Source of the DNA: a plasmid
Sequence record: NZ_CP118109.1
Reading direction: 5' to 3' (one strand)
DNA: 64,000 nucleotides
A program made the translations under genes and the position numbers. Positions 4,995 through 60,000 of the stretch are shown one piece after another; position 1 is the stretch's first letter; each line of letters begins with the position of its first letter. The notes beneath the pieces are model-generated. The model saw only the letters and a list, made by a program, of their open reading frames with translations. It did no database searches and was not told the DNA's origin.

Positions 4995-5677
4995 TGTGCG
5001 ATCACCTGTTTTCGAATCACTCGGTTAATCCCATGTATCTGATGAATATTCTTCTTTTGTGATATCGTCTCTCTAGCTTCATCTACATATTTCTCAATAT
5101 CAAAAGCGTTTCGAAGAAGGCTCCGTTGCCAGCTTAAGCGAATGCGCTTTGCTTCATCGATGGCAAACAGGATTTCGTCCAGATCATAGATGCCGAGTAA
5201 GTAATTAAATTTTCCTTCATCCTGCTTAATCATATGAGGATTGCTCTGAATGTTCATCTTTTCATACCAGTACTCAAGCAGTTCTTCCATCGTAAAGCGT
5301 TTCTTCATCTCCAAGAAGAACGGCTCCACTTCTTGAATATATTTGCCGTCCGGTCCTTTACGCATCTTAGGCGCAGGAGAAGTTTCCCTCAGCCGGTTGT
5401 GATAGTAGAAGATATCCGGATTCATGATATTCTTCGGTGGTTTCTTTGTGGCGAAAATCTCTTCAAGCATATAAATTCGTTTGACCATATCCGGGTAATC
5501 TTGGGCAAACTTCTCGATCTCTGCTTGAATCTCTTCCAGCTCCCATCCATCCTTAACTAATTTCTGAATAGATGATATGTTAGTCCGGATACGAGAGTCG
5601 GCATTCTGTATCGGAATACCGACTATCGTGCATACGAACCATCCTGAGAGCTGATAAATCAACCCATCTCGATTCAT
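4991..5677 (-). CDS. Hypothetical 228-aa protein of the replication module.
   Basis: Its ATG overlaps the TAA stop of the single-strand annealing protein gene (TAATG). No recognisable motif. It lies between the annealing-protein and primase genes. Confidence 0.45.
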   Translation of the reverse strand: MNRDGLIYQLSGWFVCTIVGIPIQNADSRIRTNISSIQKLVKDGWELEEIQAEIEKFAQDYPDMVKRIYMLEEIFATKKPPKNIMNPDIFYYHNRLRETSPAPKMRKGPDGKYIQEVEPFFLEMKKRFTMEELLEYWYEKMNIQSNPHMIKQDEGKFNYLLGIYDLDEILFAIDEAKRIRLSWQRSLLRNAFDIEKYVDEARETISQKKNIHQIHGINRVIRKQVIAQ

Positions 5678-6879
5678 TAGGCGGCAAACTTCTCCAAGAA
5701 GATATTAAATTCAGCTAAATTCCCCGGAGTTAAATCGCCTGGAACTGCATCCTCTTTCTTCAAGAACTCTCTGAGTAAAGGAAGCATGTCGTTATCGGTT
5801 TGTATATTGAGCCTTGCCTTGTGCTGATGTATCTTTTGTATCTCAACCTGATCCCATTGCGGCGGAATAGCACTTTGCTGCGGAGCACTCTGTGCCTCAG
5901 TTTGAACCGGCGCGCCAACTGGTTTAGCTTCAGCCTTGAATGCTTGCGGCGTTGCTTCCGCTTGAGGGGTCGCTTGGAACGACTGCTCTTTAGCAGCTTC
6001 TGGTTGCTTGTTCGGCAGATTGCGCTGATCCCAAGCAATGGCTTCTGGTGTGTTTGGCTCATGAGGATTAAATGGATATTGATCTTCATGAAGCTCTGGC
6101 GCTACATTAAAATTTCCGTTAGCCTCGTTATTTACATCTACAGCCCAGTTCGTTTGCTGTTGTGGTGCGCCCCACTGTCCGTTAAAGCCACCTTGCTGTT
6201 GTTGTGAAAACTGCTGCTGCTGTTCAGGCGTAGGTTGGAAATAAGCTTGCTGTTGCTGTTGTTGATACGGATCAGTATAAGGCTGTCCGAAGCTTTGCTG
6301 AGGCTGAGCATAAGTTTCTTGCGGCTGCTGGAACCCACCTTGCGGTTGGTGTTGGAATTGATACTGTCCGCTTTGCTGCATTTGATCATAAGCGTTTTGT
6401 TCCTCATCAGCATCCGTTTCGACTTTAATTTTGGAATAGATAGACTCGCCTACGCCAAAGAGTGATGCCGCTTTTACTAAGACATTAGAAGCAGCTGCCT
6501 TATAAGCACTGTCTTGATTATCCTTGCCGCCGACAGCAATTTTGCAACCATATTGCTCACGCTGGCCAAGTCCGGGAATGAACAGGAAGCCGCGAGCGTG
6601 ATAAACATATCCATCAAAGGACCATGTCTTGGAATCCTTATCATACTTGTAGACTTCTTCTCTCCAATTATCAATCAAGCCGAAGTCCCAATACGTATAT
6701 CCTGACACAGCGTTATCTAAAATTTGGCGAACGGTGTTTACGCCCATATACTTACTTGCAGGTTTCTTTCCGCTCCCCGGTTTGGTTTCTAGCCATTCGT
6801 CCTTACATTCCTTCAAAGACTCACGGATCTTTTTGATCTGATCCATGTCCGGAAGGTATTTCTCAATTGTAGGTCTCAT
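5677..6879 (-). CDS. Rad52/Sak-like single-strand annealing protein (SSAP): an N-terminal annealing domain, a long Gln/Pro-rich low-complexity linker, then a C-terminal domain.
   Basis: The likely start is the ATG at 6879 (MRPTIEKYL), preceded by AGGAGG 6 nt upstream. The track ORF begins 96 nt further upstream and would overlap the promoter -10. YMGVNTVRQILDNAVSG.YTYWDF and KAAASNVLVKAASLFGVG resemble the two Rad52 signature blocks (Y.sG..vi..aN.iFG.nGWS and kkA.tDalKRalr.FGn.lG). Confidence 0.55.
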   Translation of the reverse strand: MRPTIEKYLPDMDQIKKIRESLKECKDEWLETKPGSGKKPASKYMGVNTVRQILDNAVSGYTYWDFGLIDNWREEVYKYDKDSKTWSFDGYVYHARGFLFIPGLGQREQYGCKIAVGGKDNQDSAYKAAASNVLVKAASLFGVGESIYSKIKVETDADEEQNAYDQMQQSGQYQFQHQPQGGFQQPQETYAQPQQSFGQPYTDPYQQQQQQAYFQPTPEQQQQFSQQQQGGFNGQWGAPQQQTNWAVDVNNEANGNFNVAPELHEDQYPFNPHEPNTPEAIAWDQRNLPNKQPEAAKEQSFQATPQAEATPQAFKAEAKPVGAPVQTEAQSAPQQSAIPPQWDQVEIQKIHQHKARLNIQTDNDMLPLLREFLKKEDAVPGDLTPGNLAEFNIFLEKFAA

Positions 6880-6959
6880 AGACGCCTCCTGTATACTGAC
6901 TGCTTTCTTATTATATTCTTCAACAGATGCCGAAGCAACACCTAAATGTAATGCGTTAC

Positions 6960-6996
6960 ATTTGTATGATAGCACGCTGAATTTTAGGAATCAAGA
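6960..6996 (-). promoter_or_regulatory. Sigma-A-like promoter for the replication/recombination operon: TTGATT - 17 nt - TATCAT, reading on the minus strand.
   Basis: The -35 is at 6994-6989 and the -10 at 6971-6966. It is followed 3 nt later by the 18-bp palindromic motif at 6962-6945 and then the 5'UTR leading to the SD/ATG at 6879. Confidence 0.4.
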
Positions 6997-7039
6997 GAAA
7001 AATTGAAAAAACGCAAGATATCGAGAGATATCTTGCGCT
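6990..7039 (-). terminator. Rho-independent terminator ending the late (structural + lysis) transcription unit.
   Basis: Perfect 11-bp stem CGCAAGATATC / GATATCTTGCG with a 4-nt loop (GAGA on plus, UCUC on the minus transcript). On the minus strand it is followed immediately by TTTTTTCAATTTTTC. It lies 18 nt downstream of the Holin_LLH-like stop. Confidence 0.7.
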
Positions 7040-7056
7040 AGAAAGAGATAGAAGTA

Positions 7057-7335
7057 TTAAGCTTCTTTCTTTTTAAACGTGCCAACGAGATTATGGAAGC
7101 TGACAACAATATCGACAGTGCTTCCTGCAACTCTCAGAACGAACGACTCAGAGACTTTAAGTGCGAACACTCCATTAACCTCTGCGTAGACTACTCTGAC
7201 AGTATCAAGAACAGCCTGTTTCTTCTCTGCACCGTTGCCCTCTGTTTCGAAAAGAGCAACCAAGGTGAAGACCAATTGAACGACAGCCGGCGTAATTGCT
7301 AGATATTCAAGAGCTTTGCGAACGCTTGTTAACAT
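7057..7335 (-). CDS. Small holin-family protein, LL-H holin family-like: one N-terminal transmembrane helix followed by the G.GAEKK motif.
   Basis: 92 aa with a single hydrophobic helix (LAITPAVVQLVFTLVALF) followed by ETEGNGAEKKQAVLDTV, which resembles the LL-H holin signature. It is the last gene before the terminator. Confidence 0.5.
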   Translation of the reverse strand: MLTSVRKALEYLAITPAVVQLVFTLVALFETEGNGAEKKQAVLDTVRVVYAEVNGVFALKVSESFVLRVAGSTVDIVVSFHNLVGTFKKKEA

Positions 7336-7346
7336 TTCGTTTCCCC

Positions 7347-7844
7347 CTATTTCTCTTCCGTATTTTTGGAAGATCGATTAGATTTATTTTCAATCTCAGA
7401 TTGAACAAAGTTAATGATGCTGTTTGGAATCCACTTCTCCCATCCAGCTCGTACAGAGTTAGCCGTTAAGCTGTTGAAGGTGTGGAAGATCAAGCCCGTC
7501 GTTACAAAATAGAAGATAACGCCTGGCGTGTTTAATACATAGTCAAGCATGTTGGCTGCTGCCGGAAAACAAAGTATGAATAAAGTCCTCAGTACGCCAT
7601 TGATACCATATTCGGAAGAATAACTTCCATCTTTCTTGGAAGCGGCGATCCCACTGATCCAGTCCATAAAGATAAAGAATGCATAGATGGCAATCATAAA
7701 TTTCCGCTCTTCTCCGCCGCCGTATACGGTTTCTACGATCGACCCGAAAACTCCACCTATTGTTGCCCATACTGCAGTAGATGAAGAAGCTATATTATCT
7801 AAGCTAAGTGTTTTTCCGAGCTCAAAGCGACTCATCGGTTTCAC
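7347..7844 (-). CDS. Holin of the toxin-secretion / phage-lysis holin family (Phage_holin_4_1, TcdE-like), with three predicted transmembrane segments.
   Basis: IFMDWISGIAASKKDGSYSSEYGINGVLRTLFILCFPAAANMLDYVL matches the characteristic D.ITG..aA....lsS..g.kG..kK.......a..lD block of this family. The C-terminal tail is charged. Confidence 0.75.
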   Translation of the reverse strand: MKPMSRFELGKTLSLDNIASSSTAVWATIGGVFGSIVETVYGGGEERKFMIAIYAFFIFMDWISGIAASKKDGSYSSEYGINGVLRTLFILCFPAAANMLDYVLNTPGVIFYFVTTGLIFHTFNSLTANSVRAGWEKWIPNSIINFVQSEIENKSNRSSKNTEEK

Positions 7845-7851
7845 CTCTTTC

Positions 7852-9090
7852 TCATCGAGAATAATTAAGCCTTACCGCATGCAGGCATGGATTCACGCCG
7901 TTGTACATCAGCAGCTTTGTACGAACCCATATCCGCTCCGAAAACTGACCTGACCATTCAGTATTCTTGAGGGGAGTAAGGAAGCCATCTGCTTCCTCTC
8001 TCAGTAATTCGTACTCAAAAACTCGTCCTTCCATAAGCTGATCCAAGTTGCGATCAATACCAAATGCATCACGATTGAGAAAGACGTGTTCTACAGATTC
8101 AATGTTATAGATGCCTTCCATATCGAATGGTGTTAATATTGTGCCGCCGCCTGGTTCAAACATCGTCAAGTAAACGCCGATCTCTTGCGCTCCGAGAACG
8201 AATACCTTCTTACCGCCAATATCAAGGGGATTTTTTTGAACCAGCGTAATGCGAATCTTCTGAACGGGAACGCCAGGGAAAAACCATTTCTTGCGAGGTG
8301 TATATTCGTTGCTGTTTACAGCGGCCATATCTGGTTGAATAAATCCCTGAATGGTATTCCAAGCGCTATTATAATGAATCTCCACATTCTTGACCTGAAC
8401 GCCTCTTTCCGGATGTGGATGGATTTGCACCGTGTTGATGTTGAGATTGTTTACTAGATGGCTAGGAAGTTCAATCTCAAGGATGACATCTTCTTGATCC
8501 GGACATTCAGCAATATTATATGTTACTGTTCTGTGCCAGTAAGACTCATTATCTCCGTTGAAGGCATTAAGCAGGTTATTGTCGATGACTTCACCCTTGG
8601 TATTTGTGCGACCTACTTGAACCTTCAGCTCCGTAGGAACCACCACAGTACCGGTCTTTTCATTGACCGTGTGTGTCTTTGGTATCTGATGAATCAGAGG
8701 AACAGTCGCATAGCGATAATTCAGGTCTACATCACAACGTAGGCTCGTCTCTCCGTTCTCTTGGGAGATGTTTGGGTAAACTGTCGTCATGTCTTGTACG
8801 AAGCCGGTCTTAAAGAAGATCGGATCGTAAGGCCCTGCTGATTCAATTCGATTCATCTGTGCTTCTAACTCTACGGTCTTACGCTCAAGCATCATCGCAT
8901 AGTTGTGTAGGGCTGTATTCGCTGCAAGGATGATCTGATGGGCTTCCGAAAGATTCTGGATATTCAGATTGCTTTGACGATACAGCTCTACAAGCTCTAG
9001 GTATTTATTATCTTCGTTGTTATTGTAATCCGAGGAAGAAGTAGCTCCCCTAAACTGGGCGCCTCCTGGTTTACTTGTAGGCATTCTCAT
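7852..9090 (-). CDS. Structural protein, family A paralog 1: a helical N-terminus (S-D-Y-N-N-N motif region) plus a discoidin-like carbohydrate-binding domain (LLNAFNGDNESYWHRTV).
   Basis: Its ATG at 9090 overlaps the upstream gene by 20 nt. It shares architecture and N-terminal sequence pattern with the ORFs at 11029, 18089 and 19917. Confidence 0.5.
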   Translation of the reverse strand: MRMPTSKPGGAQFRGATSSSDYNNNEDNKYLELVELYRQSNLNIQNLSEAHQIILAANTALHNYAMMLERKTVELEAQMNRIESAGPYDPIFFKTGFVQDMTTVYPNISQENGETSLRCDVDLNYRYATVPLIHQIPKTHTVNEKTGTVVVPTELKVQVGRTNTKGEVIDNNLLNAFNGDNESYWHRTVTYNIAECPDQEDVILEIELPSHLVNNLNINTVQIHPHPERGVQVKNVEIHYNSAWNTIQGFIQPDMAAVNSNEYTPRKKWFFPGVPVQKIRITLVQKNPLDIGGKKVFVLGAQEIGVYLTMFEPGGGTILTPFDMEGIYNIESVEHVFLNRDAFGIDRNLDQLMEGRVFEYELLREEADGFLTPLKNTEWSGQFSERIWVRTKLLMYNGVNPCLHAVRLNYSR

Positions 9091-11020
9091 AGCTCTGAAG
9101 TCTCCTCTCTAATTCAGACAGATGCTCATTCATCTGATTCATCCTTTTTGCCACAGGATAAAGGCCGTTCATCTTCTGTTCGGCCACCGCAACCGTTACA
9201 GTGTACTCGACTTTCATATCTCCATTTTGTAACGCGTTACTTTTTAGTTTTATATATCCATTTTCGAACACAAAATCCCCAGGACTATTGAGTTCTGCTC
9301 CATCTAAGGATATCACAAGCCTTGAAAAAGAGCTTTCTTCAACTCCCGGCATGAGCAGATAGCTGGTCTGTTCCATATTTATATTGAACGTTTTTACTGC
9401 AGAATACGTAATATTTTCCACTCCAGCTTCGTTTTCCCCCTGAAACCACGATTTTACGGCATCATCTTGATTTTTTGTATGATTTTCTATCATCATGTGA
9501 TTCAGTCGGATGTCCAAAATCTGTTCTTGGTGATCAGATAATACTTTCTCTGATTCACGTTGCCCCCGATATCTTGCATTACGCTTCATGATATTTGGGT
9601 AGTGGTAATTATCATCCCTGCGCTCCACGATCACTAGATCGTACCCGTCATCAGCCGTGGCAATCCATCTTAATTCATAGAATCTCGTGAGCGTTTGCCC
9701 TTGATCATCATTCATGACAGCTTTAAGGATAATCGTATACCTCTTGCGAGCAACGTAATCACGCAGTGCTGCACGGATTCGGTATTCTCCACCAGCGGCA
9801 ATCGTTACCGATTCTTGTATCTGAGTACGCCCATCCATGTAGATGAATGATTCTGCGCCGACCTCTACCTTAAATTCGACAAATTTCCAAGCCGAATCTC
9901 CGCTATTTTTGTAGGATAGAAAAATATCATCCTTATTGATCGGCAGCTCATTCATCATAATCGAAGGATTAACTTGCACTTGGCCATCATTAGTACCAAT
10001 CCATAATTCTATTCCTGGCTTTTTCTTTGGTGGCTCCAATACGGAAACGACAACTGAATCTTCGCCTTGCGATCCCTCTACATTCTCAGCATAGAACTTG
10101 ATCGTATACGTTCCAAGGCGATTAAAGCTGAGTATAGCCTGCCCTCCATTCTGGTTAAGAATATCTACTCCGGTCGGAATGTCCCACCTTCTGAGGCTGA
10201 TTTCGGCTTCTGATTCGGCAATAGCATCCAGGGTCAGGCTCTCACCTTGTGACAAAGAGTGTGTACTTGGTTGAAGGATATCAACGAGTATAGGCGCAGG
10301 ATCAGCGACATATATGGGCGCACTTATTGTGAAATTTTCACCTATTGTATTATTCACATTGTACTTTACGTGATATGCCCCTGCTTTGCTAAATCGAGCA
10401 CTATTGGTTAAATCCGTGAACGAGATTGGTCTTACAATGGTTGAGTCTGCATCATAGAACCAATCACAATCTCTAATGGCTGTATTGCTACCGGTTAAAG
10501 TGATCTTGAAGCTGGCCGTTTCTCCAATCCGGATGCGTGCTTCGGGAGGGTCAATTGTTCCCGATAGCGGTATATGTGGTGGCGGCGGATCCTGATACGC
10601 TTCAATTCTGTACTCTACATAATCCTGTGCTTCAACATATCCGATGTATGGCTTTCGGTACCGGGCATCGCTTCGAACTTGGCTGATTGTTTTTCCATCA
10701 ACCCAATTCCCTATTGCTACTTCCAGATTACTTGAATTAGGTCCGTACCGAACAACTTCTTCTATCCAACTCTTTACCCCATTATCGTAAACATAAGCAA
10801 TCCCTAAGAGACTACCAAATTTATTTGATGGCGAGGACAGCGGTGGAGCAAAGTTTACGATGCGGATCGTCAGGTTGTCTGCACTCTGAATCTCAGGCAC
10901 AATGCTATAGCCTTCCGATGTGCTGATACCGGTATTGCCAAGCACATCAGCGAAGTCCATTTCGTAAGGAAATACATTATCATCATCAAAATAAAATAAT
11001 ACTTTTTCTATTGTTGGCAT
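9071..11020 (-). CDS. 649-aa structural protein with PKD/Ig-like beta-sandwich domains (for example DCDWFYDADSTIVRP) and a C-terminal coiled coil.
   Basis: Long ORF in the late operon. PKD-like W.F.D.D.S patterns and proline-rich linkers. Confidence 0.5.
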   Translation of the reverse strand: MPTIEKVLFYFDDDNVFPYEMDFADVLGNTGISTSEGYSIVPEIQSADNLTIRIVNFAPPLSSPSNKFGSLLGIAYVYDNGVKSWIEEVVRYGPNSSNLEVAIGNWVDGKTISQVRSDARYRKPYIGYVEAQDYVEYRIEAYQDPPPPHIPLSGTIDPPEARIRIGETASFKITLTGSNTAIRDCDWFYDADSTIVRPISFTDLTNSARFSKAGAYHVKYNVNNTIGENFTISAPIYVADPAPILVDILQPSTHSLSQGESLTLDAIAESEAEISLRRWDIPTGVDILNQNGGQAILSFNRLGTYTIKFYAENVEGSQGEDSVVVSVLEPPKKKPGIELWIGTNDGQVQVNPSIMMNELPINKDDIFLSYKNSGDSAWKFVEFKVEVGAESFIYMDGRTQIQESVTIAAGGEYRIRAALRDYVARKRYTIILKAVMNDDQGQTLTRFYELRWIATADDGYDLVIVERRDDNYHYPNIMKRNARYRGQRESEKVLSDHQEQILDIRLNHMMIENHTKNQDDAVKSWFQGENEAGVENITYSAVKTFNINMEQTSYLLMPGVEESSFSRLVISLDGAELNSPGDFVFENGYIKLKSNALQNGDMKVEYTVTVAVAEQKMNGLYPVAKRMNQMNEHLSELERRLQSYENAYK

Positions 11021-11028
11021 AAGCTACC

Positions 11029-13095
11029 TCACTTCGCTTGCAGCTGCAGACGCATTATTTTCGGTGTGATGTGTGGAATGCTTTCTTCCCGCCTCATCGA
11101 AGCTCTCACCACGACTTGATTATTCTGAATAGAACTATCAATGACTTCATAGACCAATTGAAAAATGCAGTTTGATGGCAGGTAGTTCAGAACTACTTGG
11201 TTTTCATAAATCGCAAAGTAGTCTCTGTTATTCGGGGAGATATTGTAATACAGCGAATGCTCGTCCACGATTTTAAGACTATCCTTATCTGCCCTTACCC
11301 GTTTCTCCAAGAGGAAGTTGAATTTGCCTAGTAGGGTTTCATTAGGCAGATTGCCATCTGTAAAATCCTGCCGAAGCTGCATATCTCCCCAATGGAATAG
11401 GATTTGAATCTCACTCCATCCTGCCGCCAGCGTCAAAGTTACTTCTTCATTGGACGGTACCATGCGTTTACCATCTACATATACTGCATATGTTCCAATG
11501 CGTTTTCTTACGCCGGATACAGTCTGAATGACAGCCAGGGATAATGGTTCTACTCTGGCTTCTTCGCTATACACGCAAGTGGTGAAGCGGTAGAAGTTAT
11601 CGGACTTGCCGCCATTCTCACGGCGCAAATTTAATTGGTTTCCGATGGCTTGATAGTTAGTACGGATAGAATCTGGCCGGTTATCATATTGCGACTTCCA
11701 TGTGCTGTTCAGCGGGATGGTGCCGTCAAACTTAATATAAGACCGCTCTCTTCTCCACTGATTAATCCCGCGAAGCAGGATAGGATTCTGGATATCGTCA
11801 AAGCTTTCCGGCAGGGTGCCGTCTTTGTCATCTTTAAGGAGCCTAAATACCCTCATGCCATTCTTTACTTCCTGCGTAGCTTCTGCTTGTCCAAACTCTA
11901 TATTCTTCGATGCGCGAGCGTTAAACTCTACCGTCTTCGAATATTTAGGAGTTGTGTCTTCAGAGGGGCTGATCGGATACCAGATTAGGCTATCCAGTGC
12001 AGTCGTTTCATTCGTTAGCGCAACTTCGTAATCAATCGCTGTCCCGAACGGGATATCCTGTGAGGCGTTAAGTGAAACCATGTTGATATTATCAGAACTA
12101 AATACAAATGGCTGCGTAATTAAGGTGCCTTCGCTGAGATAGCTTTTCTTTGAAATCGAAATGCTCTTTGCGCCGAAGTAATAGTTATACATGCCGGCAG
12201 AATTATCATCATGATCCTTCTTCTCATAAGTGAACTTAATTGCCTTTACCTTTAGCTGAGAGAAGTTCCATACCGCTCGATTACTTACAGATTGCTTATT
12301 ATTCTTTTCAGGCAACGGAGTGAATGTCGATCCATCAAGAGAGTATTCTACTTGGATCAAAACGGGCTTGCCGTGGTGAGCAATATACTCTACTTCATTA
12401 ATCTCTTCTACACTGGCCAGCCTGATCGTCAGCTCTGCTTTTACGGTGCCTGGTCCTGTTGTTTTAATTACATGCCACCAAGCTGTATTGATGTTGTCAT
12501 CGAACGCATTGTTGATCGTTTCGATAGCAGACTGTTTTACGTTAGGCGTAAGTGCATTAAAGGTTGCTTGAGAGCCTGATAATAAGACTTTATTGCTCTG
12601 CCTTTGATTTTCTTTCAATGTGATCTGACCGTTATTCAGATCAATGGCTGCCGTGCTATTACCGGTGTTCATCCGGCTTGTGTCAATGAAGTCTTCAATA
12701 ACCGTATCTAAGTAGCTGCTTCCTGCCCCCGACACAAGGAGAAGCTGATCAATCTTCTTAGATAGCATAGATAGTTCATGGCTGATCTTGGCTCGCTCTG
12801 TTTCAACAAAATTGAAGTCATTCATAATTCGAATGGTTTGACTAATTGTGGCGTCATACAAATCGCCAATGTCCTGTCTAATCATCGTCACATTATCATT
12901 GTAGCTTTCGCTGTCCGACTTCTCTTTGCGGAGAACCTTACGAGGCGAAAAGGACGGAGCTCCAGGAGTATGTTCCCGGAGCCATTGCCCTAGATGATAA
13001 GTGATGGTTTGAATACTGGGATATCTTCCGCGCTGCAGATAGGACCTTACGATCTTCTCTACTGTGCGTGAGAGCTGTGTCTGCCGGATGCCCAT
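11029..13095 (-). CDS. Structural protein, family A paralog 2 (688 aa): a helical N-terminus plus a discoidin-like domain (FDDNINTAWW).
   Basis: Its N-terminal SESYNDNVTMIRQDIGDLYDATISQ resembles SKSYNSNLEEIAFDLSTLFEASNQ of the 19917 ORF. Central region is FNALTPNVKQSAIETINNAFDDNINTAWW. Confidence 0.5.
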   Translation of the reverse strand: MGIRQTQLSRTVEKIVRSYLQRGRYPSIQTITYHLGQWLREHTPGAPSFSPRKVLRKEKSDSESYNDNVTMIRQDIGDLYDATISQTIRIMNDFNFVETERAKISHELSMLSKKIDQLLLVSGAGSSYLDTVIEDFIDTSRMNTGNSTAAIDLNNGQITLKENQRQSNKVLLSGSQATFNALTPNVKQSAIETINNAFDDNINTAWWHVIKTTGPGTVKAELTIRLASVEEINEVEYIAHHGKPVLIQVEYSLDGSTFTPLPEKNNKQSVSNRAVWNFSQLKVKAIKFTYEKKDHDDNSAGMYNYYFGAKSISISKKSYLSEGTLITQPFVFSSDNINMVSLNASQDIPFGTAIDYEVALTNETTALDSLIWYPISPSEDTTPKYSKTVEFNARASKNIEFGQAEATQEVKNGMRVFRLLKDDKDGTLPESFDDIQNPILLRGINQWRRERSYIKFDGTIPLNSTWKSQYDNRPDSIRTNYQAIGNQLNLRRENGGKSDNFYRFTTCVYSEEARVEPLSLAVIQTVSGVRKRIGTYAVYVDGKRMVPSNEEVTLTLAAGWSEIQILFHWGDMQLRQDFTDGNLPNETLLGKFNFLLEKRVRADKDSLKIVDEHSLYYNISPNNRDYFAIYENQVVLNYLPSNCIFQLVYEVIDSSIQNNQVVVRASMRREESIPHITPKIMRLQLQAK

Positions 13096-22390: not shown

Positions 22391-22726
22391 TTATTGTCCG
22401 CTCCTTGGTTTAGATGGTCGCCATCCAGGTGGTGGCGGTTTAATAGTGCGACTATCCAAATAATCTATATAGCAATTTTCACAGAACGGACCTGACACGA
22501 ATCCTCTACTACTTTCGTGGTTCCAAGACAATGTATTTGCCCAATGTGATTTTTTGCAAGTTTTGCACTTCCAGAAGCCAAGCATCCAAAAGAGTAGTTT
22601 ATAAATAATGACACCAGCCAAAACTACCACTCCTATATTCCAAGAGAACAATAGCCAAAACAGTGGGACCCTAGTCAAAGCGTTTAACATGCCTCTCCTC
22701 CTTTCGTATGTAAAGACAGCCTGCAA
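22391..22726 (-). CDS. Small membrane-anchored protein with a C-terminal Cys4 zinc-ribbon-like motif (CKTC...CENC) and a Pro-rich tail.
   Basis: About 30 residues of continuous hydrophobic sequence (LFWLLFSWNIGVVVLAGVIIYKLLFWMLGFW), then C-x2-C ... C-x2-C. Embedded in the late operon. Confidence 0.4.
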   Translation of the reverse strand: MQAVFTYERRRGMLNALTRVPLFWLLFSWNIGVVVLAGVIIYKLLFWMLGFWKCKTCKKSHWANTLSWNHESSRGFVSGPFCENCYIDYLDSRTIKPPPPGWRPSKPRSGQ

Positions 22727-22733
22727 GCTGCCT

Positions 22734-23177
22734 TCAATAAATCTCTATAATGATGTGCGCGTATTTTCCAGCATACGTTTTCAGGATCGATTCAATATCG
22801 TGGTTGCCGATAGTAAAGTTTTCAACTGAATACCCTTCGATCGTATATTCCGAATACCCATACCATTCCGTATAGATATCAAGCTCACCGATCGACATCA
22901 TAATCTGTTTTTCTTCTGCTTCTTCGAGTGAGACTTCTTTGTCACTCAGATGAAATCGAAGGAAAACGTTGGGTAGAGAAACGGACATATCCGTATGGTA
23001 ATCATTTGTTTGGTGTTTGGATTCGTCGTTTCCGGATATCTGAGAAGCAATCGCTCGGCCGATACTTTCATAAGTGCCATCAAATTTCATCCCGTCTTCG
23101 TGATTGTTTAAATATCCTCGCAGGTGTATTCGCTTCTGAATTGTATCTTTCTGGTATCGGCTCATCAACTCGGTCAT
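22734..23177 (-). CDS. Hypothetical 147-aa acidic protein.
   Basis: ORF in the operon whose start overlaps the stop of the upstream gene. No recognisable motif. Confidence 0.4.
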   Translation of the reverse strand: MTELMSRYQKDTIQKRIHLRGYLNNHEDGMKFDGTYESIGRAIASQISGNDESKHQTNDYHTDMSVSLPNVFLRFHLSDKEVSLEEAEEKQIMMSIGELDIYTEWYGYSEYTIEGYSVENFTIGNHDIESILKTYAGKYAHIIIEIY

Positions 23178-29489: not shown

Positions 29490-29512
29490 AATAGGGGTTT
29501 TATGCCCCTATT
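29490..29512 (-). terminator. Hairpin spanning the stop codon of the 2787-aa gene, with a U-run after it. Candidate attenuator between the two giant genes.
   Basis: 8-bp perfect stem AATAGGGG / CCCCTATT with the loop CAUAAAA, which contains the TAA stop. It is followed by GCUUUUUACA and then the RBS of the next gene. Confidence 0.4.
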
Positions 29513-32500
29513 ACCTTCAGGTAGATGAAGTTGCTTGCTGTTTCACCTTCCATACTGTAAGAAGCTGTTACAGTAATATTGCCTTGCTGTTCATTCAAAG
29601 CGGATATTGTCCACTCTGCTTGGCCATACACATTTGTCGTCATTTCAGAAGTAGTGATATCACCTTTCGTATCACGACAAACAATCTTAATTCTCTCCCC
29701 CGCCACGTTCTCCCAGTTCTCATTTCGAAGCGTAATGTAGACGGTTGCCTTATCATCCTGCCCCGCTTGAATCGCAGCCTTACTGGTTTTCACTTCAAGG
29801 AAGTAGCGATCCTTCATATTAGGAACATAGAAGTTTAGGAGTGTTTGGTTATTTAAGTCTTCGCAGATAATCTGATATGCGCTAATCATTTCAGCTCTAG
29901 GTACTGGCTTATCATAAACGTAAATTTCACCTGCACGGTTTGTTGGACCGCTGTAGATCAATTCTCCATCACGATATACATCCACGTTCTTGTTCTGAAT
30001 AGGATTGTTGTATTTGTCCAGTACCTTCCCTGTCACAAGGACCTTTCCTAATCCATCGGAAGATAATGTCTTTGGTGATACATTGATCTCTACAGATTTT
30101 GGTGTGTCCAATATCTTGTTGGTCAAGTAAAGGAAGCCCTTGTGATTATGAGTAAGCAGCGGATTCAGTGCGATTTCTTTTGCACGATAGAACGGACTAA
30201 ACGCATCGCCTTCATAAATTATCTCCATATCCTTCATCTTGTCTGGATCATAGTTCGAATGAAGAACAATCTTAGCGACATCATTATTCGGATCGTGGTT
30301 ATAGTCTACAAAATAGCTGTACATTAAGCTATATTCGAAGTTCATTATATCACGGTTTCCTATATTGTTCATGAACTGAATCGACGATCTCTCTGCATCA
30401 AATACATATTTGTCTGCTGAAATTGTAACGCCATTCAATTTAACAACAAGGCTGTCCGGGTCAATGCCTTTATAGGTGAGATAGTACTTACCATATCCGT
30501 TTCCAGTCAGCTCTTCTTTATAGGTTAATGTCTGCTGAATATCAATGAGCAAGCCATCCTCGTTAAAGACTTCTTCATAGAATGCCGTTTTGCGAAGGAT
30601 ATTCCCTTCATTATCCCTTATGATCATCGGAGCTCCCTGTTGTGGCCGAGGTTGAATGAGAAGCTGGTGATCAACCGGAGTCATTACATGGCGGGTCTTC
30701 TTCGCATATAGGTAGTGCTCTTTATCTTTGAAGTAGTAATAGCCATTATGAATCATTGGACTCCATGGCATCGGAGTGGCTTCTTTTACTCTGGCATTTA
30801 CCGCATAGCCTAATCGAGGTGTAAAGAAATCAGGCGAGATCATAGTTCGATCTGTTGCCGGGTGTGACCATTCCAGCTTCACACTGGCCGTGCCTTCATT
30901 TTCGAAATAGTTAGCGTTGAAGTCGTACCATTTGCCTCCTTGCAGATCAATGCTGCCCACATGAGTCATTGCAGATTGCAATACCCATTTATCAATGATG
31001 AGCTTCTTATCAATCCAGAGTCTGAATCCATCGTCTGAGGTGGAGTAGAAAGTATAGGTACCCGATACCGGCGCATAGATGCTTCCTTTCCAGTTGATTG
31101 CAAATCCATCGTTTGGTGTCCCCTCATCGGTCGGCTGAATCGGATCAATGTAAGGCTCTGGCTGATCCGGACTGTAAACGTCCACTGATGTATCCGGTGG
31201 TAAGTGCCCTCGGTTTATTTCACGGTAATCAAGCCAAGCAGGTTGCTCAGGCGTGGATGCCGGACGCGTAATAACGGTAGCCGATACCTTAGCATCATCA
31301 CTAGATGTAACGATACCTCCTGTTGTAAAGTGCGTCTTGTAATCACTCGTATCGTTCTTGATAAAGTATTGAAGCGACACATCACTGCGTGAGAATCCAT
31401 GAGCACTTAGGAAGCTATTTAATTCGCTACTGAAGAACTCAATCATTCGCTGGTCGTTAACCACCATCTCTTCGGTTCGCAGACTGTCGGTCAGCGATTT
31501 TGTCTTCTCTGCACTCATCGGTTTCCGGATCGTTTCTTTTAGAATTTTCGAGGTGCTGAAATTCCAGAAATACGTATTAGGCTGTGATCTTGTTACTGGC
31601 CCCCATGCCCCTGCAATTAATGCATCCGGTGCGTTGTCCACAATATCAAATTTTAATACGTCATTGGTATAGACTTGGATCGACTGTCCGACGACTCTCA
31701 CACGGATCTTGTTCGTTTGATTTCCTCCATAAGCCCAGGGTTCGGGAAGGTGAGCAAGCTTCACTTTGTTATAAGTGAGCTGTGCTGTTCCGTACTGAGA
31801 TGGGTTTGTACAGATGTTTCGATATATAGCCATCCCTCTTACATCCATGCCATCTGCATCCCACTCAAACGAATAGAAGTTTTTAGTGGCAGGGCTGAAG
31901 CGGAAGATTGCACCATACATATCATTATCACCTGAATTGATCTCTTGCACCAAGAACTCGAAATCATAATCCGTCATGTCTACATGTTCGGGATTGTACC
32001 ATCCAGAGCGGTAGCTTTGATTAGCAAGATTCGTTACTTTGTCATAACCAGCTTCGGGCGGGCCGTGCCAGTTTCCTACATCTGATCCAATGTTTTCATC
32101 GAACTTATTCCATACGCCAGTGAAGTTACTGGTGTCGATGACTTCGGATGAAGGATAGCTGATCTCCATCTCGACATTCAGATTAAATTTAATCTGATCA
32201 GGAATCACGGCCATCATGCGGAAACCGGCAGGTTCCAGGCTTTCCGTGAATGGCGACTGCGTACCCCAGTTGAAGTTAATGAAAGGATCGATGCGGGACA
32301 TCTTTACATTACCAAGGTAATTTTCTTTCTGCGGATCGAAGCGCTTGGCCACCCTGTAGGACTGCAAGTGAACCCAGTCTTTAGGCATGAGTAATTCTTT
32401 ATCCACCGTAAGAATACGACCGCTGATGCTATATTTCGTTTCATCCAGCTTAGCCCCATTTAAGTATACTTCTGGAGATAGCTGCGGCTCATTGGATAAA

Positions 32501-35500
32501 TCAAACGTATTATCAATCTCACCTACACCGTACCTGATTCGAATGACACCTGGCGTCACATAACTTCCTCTAATCTTAAATGTCTGACCATCAATGTAGT
32601 ACCCGTTTGTCGTGCTTTCTGGAATCTCCACATCATTTTTTCTAACCGAAAGAACCTTGTAAGGCGGTACATCATACATCGGGAAGTCTGTTTGCATTGG
32701 CAGCTCTTTGATCTTGATTCCGCCTGCAGAGTAATTCACCTCAATGACATCTTCATTTACAATTGGTGCCGTTATAATGACATCCTTACGATCCATAGCG
32801 AAAGCCGTAATCGAAGTGCCGTTCACTTTGACCGAAACAGAATCGGGGTCTGGCACATAGCTCAGACTAAGCACCTTACGCACCTCAGTGCCAATGTTGG
32901 TTGTCACCATATAAGTGGTCTGTGCATTGCCTTGGTTGAATACGCTGATGATCCATGTTCCCTCAATCGGCAGCGTGAAGGTCATTACTTCTGCATGTCC
33001 GTTGTCTCCAGAGTGCGTATACTGTCTGCAGCTTAAGAAATCGGATGCAGTTGTTCCCGTAGCAGACCAAGTTCCGTTCATATATTTAACACCAAACTGT
33101 TCACCGTTCGGTGCAGTCACAAGCAGGTCAGGATATTTATTTCCTGTATCAATCATGAAGTTGGATGCGATTTTAAGAATTGGCTTTCCTGCAGGAACAT
33201 ATACTGTCGCCACCTCGGACTCCGTAGCTCCTTGAATGGTTCCTCTCACCGGCGCACTGCCGGGAATGAACGTTTCGGTTGCAGGTAGTCCCGGTGTATT
33301 TACTGGAGCCACGGCTTCTTCAATGACAAACACCTGCTCTTTGATTTGAAAGCTGCCGCCGACAACAAACTTCTCAAGCACGTTCTCAATCTCTTGAGGG
33401 TAGCGATAGTACGTTCCCAGGAGCCCTGAAGAACTCCCCTCTGCTTGAGTTGGCCAGACAGAAACAAACGGATTGTTACTGATGACTTCAACGCCTTCAA
33501 TAGAAACATTATCATCATAGTCTTCCTGATCATCTGGATTGATGGAGATCGGATCGCTTATGGTTGTTGTCGTATTCAGATCTGCATGAAATCCTCTCTC
33601 ATCTTCATGCCAGCTTGTGTACCAATCGGTATACCAAACGTAGGCATCTTTGAAATCAGAGCTGAACGTAACCGTTTTTCCCCCGGCATCGATGTTGTAA
33701 CTTACACGCTCGTCGCTGACCTCGATATACGGGCCTGTAATGTTGACCATATTCTCAGGGATGAACACTGTATTCGTTGGAACGCCGACCATGTTTGCTC
33801 GACCAGCTGAGTCTCCGAAGAATGGGCGCTTTCCATTAACCTTTCCATATCCAATTTCTTTCCCTGTTGTATAAGGGATATATCTTGGATCTTCATCACA
33901 CTTCACCACAACACGATCATTCTGCCGATCCGTCTTGATGATGGGCTTGCCAGTCAACTGGTTAATAGGCAGTCCGCTGTTGCGGGTTGTGATTCCCGGC
34001 TGGCTTTCCCAATACATCCAAGTGAATGTCTGCTTGCCGATAGGCTCCTTGTACAGAAGATAATGAACGTTGTCATAGATGCCTGGCATCGGCGTGTTTA
34101 GATACGGCTCGATGTAATGTTCATGGTTTGGCGGGATATCAACAAAGCTATCTTCTTCACTATTAACGATTCCTTCATTCAGGATATCGGCAGGAAATAT
34201 GCCCTTGTACCACTCTGTTGTTTTGAGCATGAGTACATCGGACGGATCGTGATGAATGTCTACTGCTCCGCTATTCTGCCATTTCCAAGCGTCATACTGC
34301 TCGTTTACGGTTCCTGAGTTATCGTGGAAGGTTAATGTGTAGGTTGCCCAGTTGCCGCCCACAAAGTCCGTCAGAGGCCGTCCTGCGACCCATCCTTCAT
34401 AAGCAAATACATTATGCTCATAATCAATCTCGGTCGTTACAATCTCGGGCTCAGTCTCCCACATCAATAGTCGCTCTTGCGTGAAGTCCTTCTCCGCATC
34501 ATCAGCAGCTGGCTTCACTAGTGTAAAGGTTGGCACGACACTGCTTGCAGACATTTCTGGATGATCACTCTTGAATTTAGCTAGCTCTGCTTTAAAGAAC
34601 TCCTGAGCATTCGTATAGACTTCGGCAGCCGTATTCAAATCAATATTGTCGGGTGTAATTCGAATCTGGCCACTCTTCGTAAACTTCTGCGTGATTGGCT
34701 CTCCTGCATTAGGTGGATTGTTAGACTTCACCACGATGGCTCCCGTGACAGATGCTGTAATACTGCCGGCAGAGCTATCCGTTAATTCGCCAGCTACTTC
34801 TGTGACTTCATATTTCTGTGATGGCGAGCTGAGCTTGGATACGACTTGATTCTTCACGTATTCTCTACCAGAAGAAGAAATCGTTTTACTTCCGATACCC
34901 GTATATTTATCATAGCCGGTTTCCGGAATACGCCCCTCGATCTGATTCCACTCACGTACACGGATACCATGAAACTGAACAGCCTGAGAGATATTGCACA
35001 TCCCAAAGCTTCCTTCTTCCCAATCAGTATTGAACTCGAAGATTTTCGCATAGTCACCGCTTAAACTGTGGCGGATATGAAGCTCTACTTTCTTGCCCAT
35101 GGAGCGAACCATCATACTTTGCATGACATTGAAATCCCATCCATTGCCGCCACCTAGATCATTTACATTAACCCTACTCATTACTCCATCGGTTACTTTA
35201 TAGATGCGTCTATGCTGTGTCTTCCACCCCATGCTCTGTGTATACAGCCGCCATTCCGATTCGGTCTGATAGCTGGCTCCTCTTACGGATCGCGCGTTCC
35301 ATTGTTCTGGTGTCCCAGTGTAGATATTGAACCCTTCCAAGTTGTCACCTGTACGGTTTGAGTTTCTTGCACGCTCATGGCTTTCAATCAGCAGCATGTA
35401 GAAGTTCCGTTTATCTCTTGCTTTGAAGATTAGTCCGATAAGGTCATCGTCTGCAATACCTGATGAGTCGCCCGCAATTGGCTTGTAATCAAACTCAGCT

Positions 35501-52287: not shown

Positions 52288-52288
52288 A

Positions 52289-57018: not shown

Positions 57019-60000
57019 TTAATTCGAACGCGGATACGATAAATGCAAGTGGTTGTAATGATCGTTCCGCTGTTGAATGGTTACGTTTGGATACTTCGAT
57101 TTCATTTCGGCTATAACATCTACGTCTCCATGAATGACGCCGCCGAATCCGACTTGAATGGCCAGTTCACAAAGAACCCTTAGATTCTCTTTATCCTTAC
57201 TGCCCTTAGCAAATCGAACCTTTCCTCCAATGTATCCTGCATTTGGTGTATCAATATCTACACCGTAGCCGGTACCATGCCAGTTCTTATCTCCCTCACG
57301 GAACGCGCTCGTAATGCAGATTGTTTCTCCGGTCTTCTGCTTATATGCTTTCCCTAGTGCTTCAAGGAGATCGTAACTAGCTTGACGGATATAAGGTGAA
57401 GAAGTCACCATGGTTAGCCTCATATTCGTTAGTGGTTGCTTCTTAATATTGATACAAGCAGCCGCCGCTTCGGAAGATGATTTTAGACGATACTTCGCTT
57501 TCCCTTCATTTCCGTATACGACCGGCTTTTCTCCTTTAGTCTGTGCACCATTCACAACCGAAGGAGCTTGGAAGCTCGGATCATAGGAAGCGATCTTCGC
57601 CATGACACCTGCAATACCTTTAGCCCAATTCTTGTCTGTAGCATATTTGATATTCATGCCCTCAAGCGTTGGTCCGTTATAGTACTTTCCGCCAGGCGTT
57701 AGATAATTATCTTTAATCTTATTGGCTGCATAGTTCACACAATCCGCAGGACTTGCGAAGGTATATGCACTCTCGTAAGGACTACTGTCATAAGCCCCAT
57801 AACCAAACAGATTGTTCTTATCTCTAAATATTCGTGATGTTCCCCAGCCGGTTTCCCATGCAGCGTGTGCTGCTAGATAGAGCGCATTGATTACTCGTCC
57901 GCCTTCATTTGGGGATTCAATTACGTCTGCCAATGGCGATGGAGCTGCAGGAATCCTGCTTTCCAGGTCAACGAAAATCTTGCCGAGTCCGGCTAGTTTT
58001 CCTTTCCCGGCAAAAGCTCTGTCTATCGCTTCTGCGGATATGCCGCTTGGCTTATTTAAATCCAGTGTTTCAAAACTTGTTCCGTCCGCATTGCTAGCTG
58101 CGCCAAATGCGTTCTGCAAATCCTGCATCGTCAGTAGATCGGAATCTTCCTCTGGGTAGGATGCGCCTCTTTCATTCTCTTCATCGTTCTCGGCAAGCTG
58201 CCCTTGCATTGCAGCACTGGCTTCTTTTCTGTCGATCTCGTATTGATCGGCAACTGATTGATTAAATAAGACCGGTTTGCGATGAGCTTCAAAGAAGTTT
58301 TTGGCGAATGTATTCATGTCAATCTGGCTATTGCTTGTTCCAGAATCGAGTGCCATATTGTACATGTCATCCATGCTTCCAGCATTTACTGCGCCGTATC
58401 GGCTTACATCTGCACCAAGGAATCCAAGCAAGACGGATCCTACAGGCCCTGTGAGTATTCTTTGCCATGTGTCTGGCGAATCCCCAATGACTGAACCTTG
58501 GTGTCCGTTGATGCCGGCTGAGAACTCCACCCCTTCTTTACGAAGAGTGGCAATAATAACTGCCTGTCGAGTAAACAAGAATCGCTCAACCCATTCAGAG
58601 ATTCCTCGGGTGATTACTTCTGTTATGGCAAACTCAACAGCGAACCCAATCCATCCAACCGGACCTAGAGCTGCAGCTCCGATACCCAAGATACCTTGAA
58701 CACCTCTGCGCCCCCATTTGGCTCCCTTGCCAAGGAACTTGGCCGAAGAGAATACGGCTTCAGAGGCAATATTCTTCAGCTTAGCAATTTTATTTAAGTC
58801 AACTCTATCATATCGCAGAAACCGTCGATTAGACAAAGCGCCGTCCAGCTTCTCAAAGAGATTCTGGCCATCCTTAAAGGTGAAGCCTTCGATTTTCGAC
58901 ATCAAATCTTTTAATAGTCCGCTTTTTTCCCATCTCTTTTTCATTTGGGTAGATACCGGATGGTATTCGCGAACTTCGCCTGTGATAGGATCGACCTCGT
59001 AGATTGGACCTGATCCACCTTTGTAGTCTGTCGTGTTGCTACTATTGATCGCATCCGTTGCCTTCTTATAGAGTGAAGATGCTTTGCTCCTCATCCAGCT
59101 GGAATCCCACTTACCCATCATGGCATTATATCGACGTTTAGTGGACGCCCAAAGCGCGTTCATGATTGGCATGGTTCCTTGATAGCCCCGATTTCTCATC
59201 ATGTTTCTCAGCAAGATAAGTGTGAAAGCTTGTAAGGCTGCCGAGCCTGCTGTAATCCATAGCCTTGTCATCTTGGTATCCGAATTGACTACACACGCAT
59301 CCGGCTTGATCATTGTAATGTAGCCGACATCAAAATTCATGATGTGGGTGACTTCTCTAACTTCAAGCGGACCACTCATATCTGTATAAGTGTCATATAG
59401 ATAGATCTGATCATGTGGCTTCACGGATGGATCGCCCATTACCGTAAGGTATCCGTCATACATCTCTTTGACCATATCTCGCAAACCGGCTGCCGCAATG
59501 CGAATTGCTGTGTACTCATCGAAATACCACTTGAACGGTTTATTTAGGAAGTGTCCGATCAGAGGGATATTCTCTATCAGGCGAACACCTTGAAGATTGA
59601 GCTGAGTGTCAATCTGAGCCGTGCGTTGTTTTTCTGGCCAGATATTTGTATCTACATAAATGAAATCTGTTGTATCCATTTTTCCTTCATCATAGTAGAC
59701 CCCTTGTGCCACCGTGTACATATTCTCATCCGTAGCTGTGATGCCGTTATCAATGATGCTTGTCCAGCTATCATAAATATGGACCTGACGGAATGGCTTA
59801 CGAAGAATCTGGATTCCTTCAAAGTCGGATTCATCATCAGATAATTTGAATTTGAAAGGATTAAATCCATAGTCGCTCTCAGCAGCATTGATCCCTTCTT
59901 CTGATGGTACGAGCAAGTACTCATATCCAATAGGGAAGTATGGCTTACCATGGAAAATGGTATTTCGGAAATCGAATGGATGCACTGCAACAATAAAATC

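Follow-up and report, generated by a model that had tools for sequence, protein, structure and literature searches.

Introduction

Two-component holin modules are known from Bacillus phages, in the form of XhlA/XhlB of PBSX and BhlA/BhlB of SPbeta, and in PBSX an amidase gene follows the module. Large virulent phages disperse their lysis genes; in T4, for example, e, t, rI and rz/rz1 lie at separate loci. Here we describe a putative lysis module in a 64,000-nucleotide (nt) stretch of plasmid record NZ_CP118109.1, which is the whole of the DNA analyzed and is referred to below as the window. The module consists of a gene for a holin of the Phage_holin_4_1 family, followed by a gene for a 92-amino acid (aa) protein, p92. 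An initial annotation had noted that the pair is not accompanied by an endolysin, and proposed that either the endolysin lies outside the window or lysis relies on a non-canonical partner. The loci of related phages favor the first of these alternatives, and nothing points to the second. It is likely that the pair is a real holin module ending the late operon of a jumbo phage, with the endolysin encoded elsewhere in the genome, an arrangement that is ordinary for such phages. The “missing” endolysin is thus most likely an effect of the window edge combined with the normal scattering of jumbo-phage lysis genes.

The window is a 64-kb part of a 190-215-kb 0305phi8-36-like jumbo myophage in Paenibacillus sp. 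TCA20. p92 is 100% identical to a protein of this strain encoded on a 214,846-bp contig, and the region of the window corresponds to ~121-185 kb of a 190,219-bp Logan contig; contigs carrying close relatives are 210-213 kb long. In tblastn searches, the virion proteins of the window matched only 0305phi8-36, Moorella phage MTATph1 and related Bacillus jumbo phages, and virion-protein PHROGs were found in the window. The features of this lineage, namely homologous virion proteins, conserved gene order and a genome of ~180-230 kb, are all present, while megablast against GenBank phages found no close DNA relative of the window.

The window, 0305phi8-36 and MTATph1 share one gene order: after the last virion gene come genes for small membrane proteins, then a primase and a helicase. 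In 0305phi8-36, the slot after the last virion gene holds gp176, with several (~4) transmembrane (TM) segments, gp177, with an N-terminal TM segment and a coiled coil, and gp178, with two TM segments. All three (locus L002, 9192-10093) are annotated “hypothetical” and are probably the unannotated holin module of that phage. In MTATph1, the same slot holds a 156-aa protein and a true LL-H holin. One MTATph1 gene at the holin position, CDS0059, was suspected by eye to be a degenerate Amidase_3, which gained no Pfam, PDB or BLASTP support. Neither gp176-178 nor the MTATph1 slot proteins have sequence similarity to the holin of the window or to p92. The slot is thus conserved across the lineage, and its occupants have undergone non-orthologous replacement.

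Results

The holin gene and the end of the late operon

The features at the end of the late operon are as follows:

7852..9090, minus strand: last virion structural gene, 412 aa (PHROG 19670 “virion structural protein”, E 4e-105)
7347..7844 (GTG start, 165 aa) or 7347..7835 (ATG start, 162 aa), minus strand: holin, Phage_holin_4_1 / TcdE family (Pfam PF05105)
7057..7335, minus strand: p92, 92-aa small protein with an N-terminal hydrophobic helix; an open reading frame (ORF) of an unannotated, lysis-cassette-associated family
7003..7039, minus strand: intrinsic terminator closing the late operon (13-pair stem, 4-nt loop, T run)
6966..6994, minus strand: sigma-A-type promoter-like site (consensus scan: TTGATT, 17 nt, TG-n-TATCAT)

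The 165-aa ORF had been called a Phage_holin_4_1-type holin in the initial annotation, and this holds. The protein matches PF05105 with E 5.8e-14 (52.6 bits against a cut-off of 22.2) and TIGR01593 with a score of 44.6 against a cut-off of 40.2, and falls in PHROG 199 “holin”. By a simple Kyte-Doolittle scan alone, hydrophobic segments lie at residues ~48-68 and ~102-120, with further weaker ones in the sequence, and K, E, S and N abound in the last 25 residues, giving the multi-TM organization and hydrophilic, charged C-terminus of a holin. Translation probably starts at the ATG at 7835, yielding 162 aa, because the ribosome-binding site AGAGGTG overlaps the GTG at 7844; the 162-aa start was also chosen by gene callers on two independent assemblies. 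A lambda-like dual start, GTG-AAA-CCG-ATG (M-K-P-M), was considered and is unlikely for the same reason, the overlap of the Shine-Dalgarno sequence with the GTG.

The protein has 40-44% identity with annotated holins from three phages, Psychrobacillus phage Spoks and the Bacillus phages B83 and phi4B1, and the similarity to Spoks ORF22 and B83 gp24, which are Phage_holin_4_1 / TcdE-type proteins of the same Pfam and TIGRFAM family, is nearly full-length. In Spoks and B83, the two annotated contexts read, the holin adjoins an endolysin: the enzyme gene comes immediately after the holin in Spoks, and after a second small holin in B83. In the window, by contrast, the holin gene is followed by p92 and a terminator, and no endolysin lies beside it in the window or the readable flanks, although such proximity is a contextual habit of the family rather than a formal criterion. 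By sequence, the 162/165-aa protein is a genuine Phage_holin_4_1 / holin_tox_secr protein and ordinary for that family.

On the minus strand, the 412-aa, 165-aa and 92-aa ORFs (7852-9090, 7347-7844 and 7057-7335) are arranged head to tail, and the stop codon of the 412-aa gene lies 8-17 nt ahead of the holin start. The tblastn homologues of the 412-aa protein are 0305phi8-36 gp175 and MTATph1 CDS0058. Behind p92 stands a hairpin, AGCGCAAGATATC-TCTC-GATATCTTGCGTT, followed by TTTTTT, with 11 perfect Watson-Crick pairs that can be extended to 13. It folds with -18.1 kcal/mol (z = -7.6), 0 of 200 shuffles fold as well, and a consensus scan places the terminator at 7039-7010, with the features of a rho-independent terminator; the strong terminator with a perfect 11-bp stem reported earlier is therefore real. 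Since the holin and p92 genes are packed tightly behind the 412-aa gene and are followed by this terminator and by a separate promoter-like site ahead of the next genes, they are the last cistrons of the structural operon, and the earlier view of a lysis pair closing the late operon is reasonable. The same packing behind the last virion gene, with a strong terminator after it, suggests that the pair is made late, together with the virion proteins.

The slot is filled in a similar way in closer relatives. Six IMG/VR contigs of the closer lineage carry, in this order, genes for virion649, virion412, a holin partner, p92, the Q-rich protein, p228 and the primase. The partner upstream of p92 is a Phage_holin_4_1 protein in four of the six; in one (L014) it is an XhlA-family protein, and in another (L018) it is an XhlA-like coiled-coil protein with a C-terminal hydrophobic helix and no XhlA Pfam match. 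An endolysin adjoins the partner/p92 pair in none of the six.

No endolysin in the window or its readable flanks

Downstream of the terminator lie genes whose products are a 400-aa protein rich in Q, a protein of 228 aa, a PriCT-type primase and a DnaB-like helicase. Pfam, PHROG and NCBIfam searches with the genes following the holin pair found no muramidase, amidase or peptidase gene, in line with what had been noted from the sequence. When all large ORFs of the window were compared with Pfam, the sole peptidoglycan-hydrolase domain was found in a large virion protein:

57592..57891, minus strand: Glucosaminidase domain (PF01832, E 3.1e-14, residues 1856-1955) in a 2145-aa baseplate-hub-like virion protein (57019-63456)

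The claim that wall-hydrolase domains are confined to this protein is thus upheld, with one such domain present. Its hub homologues, 0305phi8-36 gp147 and MTATph1 CDS0032, also carry wall-degrading domains, and by analogy the Glucosaminidase domain of the hub-like protein is an entry enzyme and not the endolysin.

PHROG searches with 19 window proteins, mostly those without a Pfam match, returned no lysin and only virion, baseplate and tail-fiber families, and phmmer searches with ten reference lysins and the endolysins of the lineage found nothing in the window or flanks. The 5 kb past the left edge contain small early ORFs, nrdI and the start of nrdE, and the 10 kb past the right edge contain two more giant virion proteins; no lysin is present in either. 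An endolysin immediately outside the window, upstream of the tail genes, which the initial annotation had named as the finding that would overturn it, was thus not seen in the 5-kb and 10-kb flanks.

The endolysin of related phages lies after dnaE

The closest relative is IMG/VR contig 3300018875_000004, whose helicase and p92 are 85% and 68% identical to those of the window. Past the helicase, its gene order is collinear with that of the source phage as far as the latter is readable, and the contig then continues with nrdI, nrdE, nrdF, several small genes, a split dnaE and a GH25 endolysin. The enzyme is 348 aa long, with a GH25 domain (Pfam 3e-46) and a Cu_amine_oxidN1-type C-terminal domain, and is encoded on the strand of the p92 homologue, 27.7 kb downstream of it. 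A second contig that carries the Phage_holin_4_1/p92 pair, 2593339199_000003, has an Amidase_2 endolysin 25.3 kb downstream, likewise past nrdIEF and dnaE. In five further members of the lineage (three IMG/VR contigs of 121-229 kb, one 31.5-kb IMG/VR fragment and Bacillus thuringiensis lyx16 plasmid p1), the endolysin lies 4.8-7.6 kb after the dnaE start. The domain combinations there are GH25 + PG_binding_1, Amidase_2 + LysM + PG_binding_1, Amidase_2 + PG_binding_1 and Amidase_2 + Cu_amine_oxidN1; the B. thuringiensis plasmid enzyme is assigned by similarity only (E 3e-123 to the Amidase_2 + LysM + PG_binding_1 enzyme). The endolysin of the lineage therefore has a fixed post-dnaE position, with its catalytic domain swapped between GH25 and Amidase_2.

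Holin and endolysin are also far apart in the described members. In 0305phi8-36, gp237, which is annotated “Gram-positive endolysin” and combines a region that is GH25-like by similarity with a repeated C-terminal region, lies at 144.3-145.4 kb, ~38 kb from gp176-178. In MTATph1, the annotated endolysin CDS0037, in which Amidase_3 catalytic motifs are recognizable by eye only, lies at 45.8 kb, ~34 kb from the LL-H holin at 80.1 kb. Holin-endolysin separation is the rule in this lineage. As the endolysin lies 25-28 kb downstream of the pair in the relatives, the corresponding place in the source phage projects to ~18-21 kb past the low-coordinate edge of the window, and we infer that its endolysin would be encoded there, past window coordinate 1, at the position equivalent to that of the relatives. 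The Logan contig stops short of the projected site, which the 214,846-bp NCBI contig does cover. A position right next to the window, upstream of the tail genes, as considered in the initial annotation, is not expected for the enzyme; the relatives place it 25-28 kb downstream of the holin pair, after replication and nucleotide-metabolism genes.

These loci also bear on the proposal that the phage truly lacks a free endolysin and lyses its host through a non-canonical partner, either the hub glucosaminidase or host autolysins triggered by holin-induced depolarization. The 64-kb window and 15 kb of flanks contain no endolysin and the hub protein does carry a Glucosaminidase domain, as this proposal would have it. 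Yet every lineage member in which the relevant region is readable has a classic modular endolysin, ~110-135 kb of the source genome lies outside the stretch read, and the hub lysin domains of related phages are entry enzymes, so that a phage without an endolysin is hardly credible here.

Several observations on the relatives' loci were made alongside. A scan of representative genomes with the DnaE of the closest relative matched only the B. thuringiensis plasmid (NZ_CP186315.1, lyx16 plasmid p1, 145 kb), which encodes a lineage-type DnaE (55% identical) together with the Amidase_2 endolysin and suggests that members of the jumbo lineage persist as plasmid-like prophages. An IMG/VR search with NrdE gave matches in unrelated phages, and one with a 159-aa early protein found no relative. 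In the closest relative (L046, 10001-14640), a 278-aa ORF with a putative N-terminal helix-turn-helix, judged by eye, interrupts dnaE and leaves parts of 497 aa and 637 aa; in another relative (L047, 9959-13471) dnaE is intact, at 1170 aa. The split gene resembles the mobile-intron-interrupted dnaE of 0305phi8-36.

A second candidate holin gene after the endolysin

In four relatives, a conserved 71-80-aa protein with two TM segments and a charged C-terminus is encoded ~0.4-0.7 kb after the endolysin (L046 17250-17465, L049 13375-13608, L051 16318-16560 and L052 16601-16825); it belongs to the relatives and not to the window. Ahead of the two-TM gene lies another, for a conserved protein of 102-130 aa; a fifth contig (L047, 15800-16192) has this other gene but not the two-TM one. 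The two-TM protein is a candidate for an additional, or even the primary, holin of the lineage.

If so, the functional lysis cassette could be the endolysin plus the two-TM protein after dnaE, and the Phage_holin_4_1/p92 pair could be accessory or have another membrane role, such as modulation of lysis timing, superinfection exclusion or a pinholin-like depolarization step. The conservation of the two-TM protein at this place in four lineage contigs and its acidic or charged C-terminus fit this explanation, and several holin-like genes are common in large phages. On the other hand, the homologues of the window's Phage_holin_4_1 protein at 40-44% identity are annotated holins of small Bacillus and Psychrobacillus phages, in two of which they stand beside the endolysin, and the two-TM protein is known from the relatives' contigs only. 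We therefore regard a lysis cassette confined to the post-dnaE region as quite unlikely, and favor the late-operon pair as the holin module.

p92 belongs to an uncatalogued family of small proteins

The initial annotation had labeled the 92-aa protein an LL-H-type holin, which the searches do not sustain. p92 itself matches no Pfam, NCBIfam or PHROG family even at E <= 1, tblastn against GenBank phages found nothing, and there is no PDB relative. HMMER recovered 108 cluster representatives of its family at E <= 1e-3, nearly all of 85-105 aa, and only 1 of the 109 family members matches PF09682, with E 7e-4. An hhalign comparison of the family with the MTATph1 LL-H holin, represented by a shallow 3-sequence alignment, gave 7% probability and a pairwise E of 0.005, with a faint alignment of a G-x-x-K motif and the C-terminal helix. 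The LL-H family (PF09682 / TIGR01673) and p92 are alike in size and in having an N-terminal hydrophobic helix followed by helical segments, but p92 matches neither model at E <= 1. Of the family members, 13 belong to PHROG 36560, a group of unassigned function, and three to holin PHROGs. The p92 family (~110 clusters) is the only element of the locus that is not yet catalogued, being missed by Pfam, PHROG and NCBIfam.

The family motif reads FE-x-x-G-N-G-x-x-KK-x-AVLD ... IDI-x-V-x-F-Y-N-L-x-G-x-F, with the invariant G-x-x-K lying in the loop E-x-x-G-x-G-x-x-KK-x-AVL and the C-terminal helix carrying I-D-x-x-V-x-F-x-N-x-x-G-x-F. The N-terminal helix has a Kyte-Doolittle mean of 2.1 over 19 residues (11-29), and family-averaged hydropathy shows, besides this helix, a second hydrophobic stretch at ~70-82; at least two hydrophobic segments are present in 44 of the 109 members. 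p92 ends in FKKKEA, and the last 12 residues of the family have a mean net charge of +0.8. The protein is thus small, has a TM helix and ends in a basic tail, which are generic features of a holin. AlphaFold2 predicts a three-helix protein (predicted local distance difference test, pLDDT, 94.8). In a Foldseek search of this model against BFVD no match was significant (best E 0.38); holin-annotated proteins were among the top matches, also without significance, and one of these, an LL-H protein, ranked 30th with a probability of 0.33. The identical TCA20 protein is named “RecB family nuclease” by NCBI; this name has no support in the sequence, the family or the gene context, and looks like a mis-annotation.

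Outside the jumbo lineage, the family occurs in eight IMG/VR loci, seven of them distinct (L019 and L020 are near-duplicates). The p92 gene directly follows a lysin gene in four of them (L022-L025), with a Peptidase_M15_3 domain in two, Amidase_2 in one and SLT in one; the distance to the preceding lysin gene is ~0.8 kb in L019 and L020, where that gene encodes a GH25 enzyme, and ~2.4 kb in L021, where it encodes a Glucosaminidase. Because relatives of p92 stand near lysin genes in these small phages, p92 is associated with lysis cassettes. The description “holin-like” is supported by this gene context only; p92 has the generic features of a holin but belongs to no curated family.

Given its place, p92 is a candidate second holin component or holin partner that would act in lysis. 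More generally, the p92 family might be a holin or holin partner that serves as a generic second component working with unrelated holins, its partner being exchanged in the jumbo phages and an endolysin abutting it in the small ones; we put this forward tentatively, as a possibility that falls short of being probable. p92 could also be an antiholin or timing partner that regulates the canonical holin upstream and does not itself form holes. Such a role would fit the constancy of p92 in the jumbo lineage against a changing upstream partner (a Phage_holin_4_1 protein in four relatives and in the window, XhlA-family in L014, XhlA-like in L018), the presence of another TM protein in the p92 cassette of several small phages, and the strongly conserved polar loop E-x-x-G-x-G-x-x-KK, which resembles a motif for interaction or regulation rather than the lining of a pore. 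However, L024 and L026 show no second obvious TM protein next to the p92 homologue, and p92 lacks a dual start or other known antiholin signature, which leaves an antiholin function doubtful.

A third interpretation is that the 92-aa ORF encodes a soluble three-helix protein unrelated to lysis, whose place beside the holin is incidental. The compact, confident three-helix bundle of the AlphaFold2 model would suit a soluble protein, as would the lack of a curated family match and the 18 of 109 family members without a strong hydrophobic segment in a simple Kyte-Doolittle scan. Nevertheless, members of the family adjoin endolysin genes in small phages that are unrelated to one another, the enzymes coming from four unrelated classes. 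In the jumbo lineage, the place of p92 next to a holin is strictly kept, its N-terminal helix is strongly hydrophobic (the mean of 2.1 given above), and holin-annotated proteins are among its best, though not significant, fold matches. A soluble protein without a part in lysis is, on this evidence, very improbable, and we continue to regard p92 as a probable component or regulator of the holin module.

Other features of the window

The promoter-like site behind the holin-operon terminator would serve the next operon, encoding the Q-rich protein, the 228-aa protein, the primase and the helicase. Just after it, at 6947-6960, lies the 14-mer TGTAACGCATTACA, an imperfect palindrome (TGTAA-cgca-TTACA) of which there are five copies in the readable 78.6 kb of the phage: at 6947-6960, ~24309, ~39336 and ~63770, and ~4 kb past the left edge (L006). 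No other 14-mer recurs four or more times in the 78.6 kb. Three of the five copies lie 4-7 nt after a -10-like TATAAT or TATCAT, including that of the promoter behind the holin-operon terminator, and TGTAACGCATTACA could serve as an operator or a +1 element in one class of phage promoters. The first protein of the next operon, of 400 aa (5677-6879), has conserved N- and C-terminal parts around a long Q/P-rich low-complexity middle; it matches no Pfam or PHROG family, and in the lineage its conserved gene comes directly before those for the 228-aa protein and the primase.

Among the baseplate and fiber genes are three RCC1-repeat (beta-propeller) paralogues (41040-42692, 43173-44825 and 46831-49047) and at least five proteins with F5/8-type-C (discoidin) domains, with further coordinates 9071-13095, 45399-46784, 51139-53794 and 336-2087. 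The window also encodes a giant protein with PA14/Big_1 domains (29500-37863) and a VWA-containing 1660-aa protein. This set of carbohydrate- and adhesion-type domains is unusually rich. Two small ORFs among the virion genes (22734-23177 and 22391-22726) have weak matches to anti-Thoeris Tad6 (E 0.005) and Endonuclease_7 (E 0.007), and a Tad2-like protein (PF11195) is encoded ~2 kb past the left window edge (L006, 13977-14282); judged by these matches, the three ORFs are possible anti-defense candidates.

Discussion

The following course of lysis would be consistent with the gene arrangement. The holin, probably with p92 as a second component or regulator, would be made late, with the structural proteins. 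A modular Gram-positive endolysin (GH25 or Amidase_2 plus a wall-binding domain) would be encoded among the DNA-metabolism genes, after nrdI-nrdE-nrdF and dnaE, and would accumulate in the cytoplasm. When the late period ends, the membrane would be permeabilized by the holin, acting by itself or together with p92, and the endolysin would be released to the wall.

Some of our findings weigh against this reading. The readable flanks of the source phage (5 kb and 10 kb) contain no endolysin, and the predicted site lies beyond them. For p92, there is no match to a curated holin family, the second hydrophobic stretch is weak, and the compact AlphaFold2 three-helix bundle would also fit a soluble protein. 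Finally, the two-TM protein after the endolysin could be the primary holin, which leaves the role of the late-operon pair less certain. We nonetheless consider a genuine holin module with a distant endolysin the likely explanation.

For general phage biology, the locus carries little weight: holin and endolysin are often unlinked in large phages, the relatives show the place of the enzyme, and the holin, the operon end, the terminator and the holin-endolysin separation are all ordinary. Its use is rather in annotation. A lysis module can be assigned for the 0305phi8-36 lineage, in which gp176-178 and their equivalents are still hypothetical; the position of the lineage endolysin is fixed after dnaE, with GH25 and Amidase_2 swapped; and a family of small proteins missed by current Pfam, PHROG and NCBIfam models is flagged. 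The case also cautions against inferring the absence of a gene from a partial window of a 200-kb genome.

Compared with the two-component modules of Bacillus phages, the window is similar to PBSX (XhlA/XhlB) and SPbeta (BhlA/BhlB) in that the late region ends with a pair of neighboring genes for small membrane proteins, and p92 has an XhlA-family protein as its partner in relative L014. However, p92 was not homologous to XhlB or BhlB in any search run, and the window locus has no counterpart of the amidase gene found next in PBSX. In 0305phi8-36, too, small membrane-protein genes come directly after the gp175 homologue and before the primase and helicase, and the endolysin is unlinked. There, however, gp237 is encoded in the right arm and on the opposite strand; in the closer relatives of the window the endolysin is on the same strand, after dnaE. 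The dispersal of lysis genes in large virulent phages such as T4 differs from that in this lineage in the protein families involved and in the host, which here is Gram-positive, but both have the holin and endolysin tens of kilobases apart, in different transcription units.

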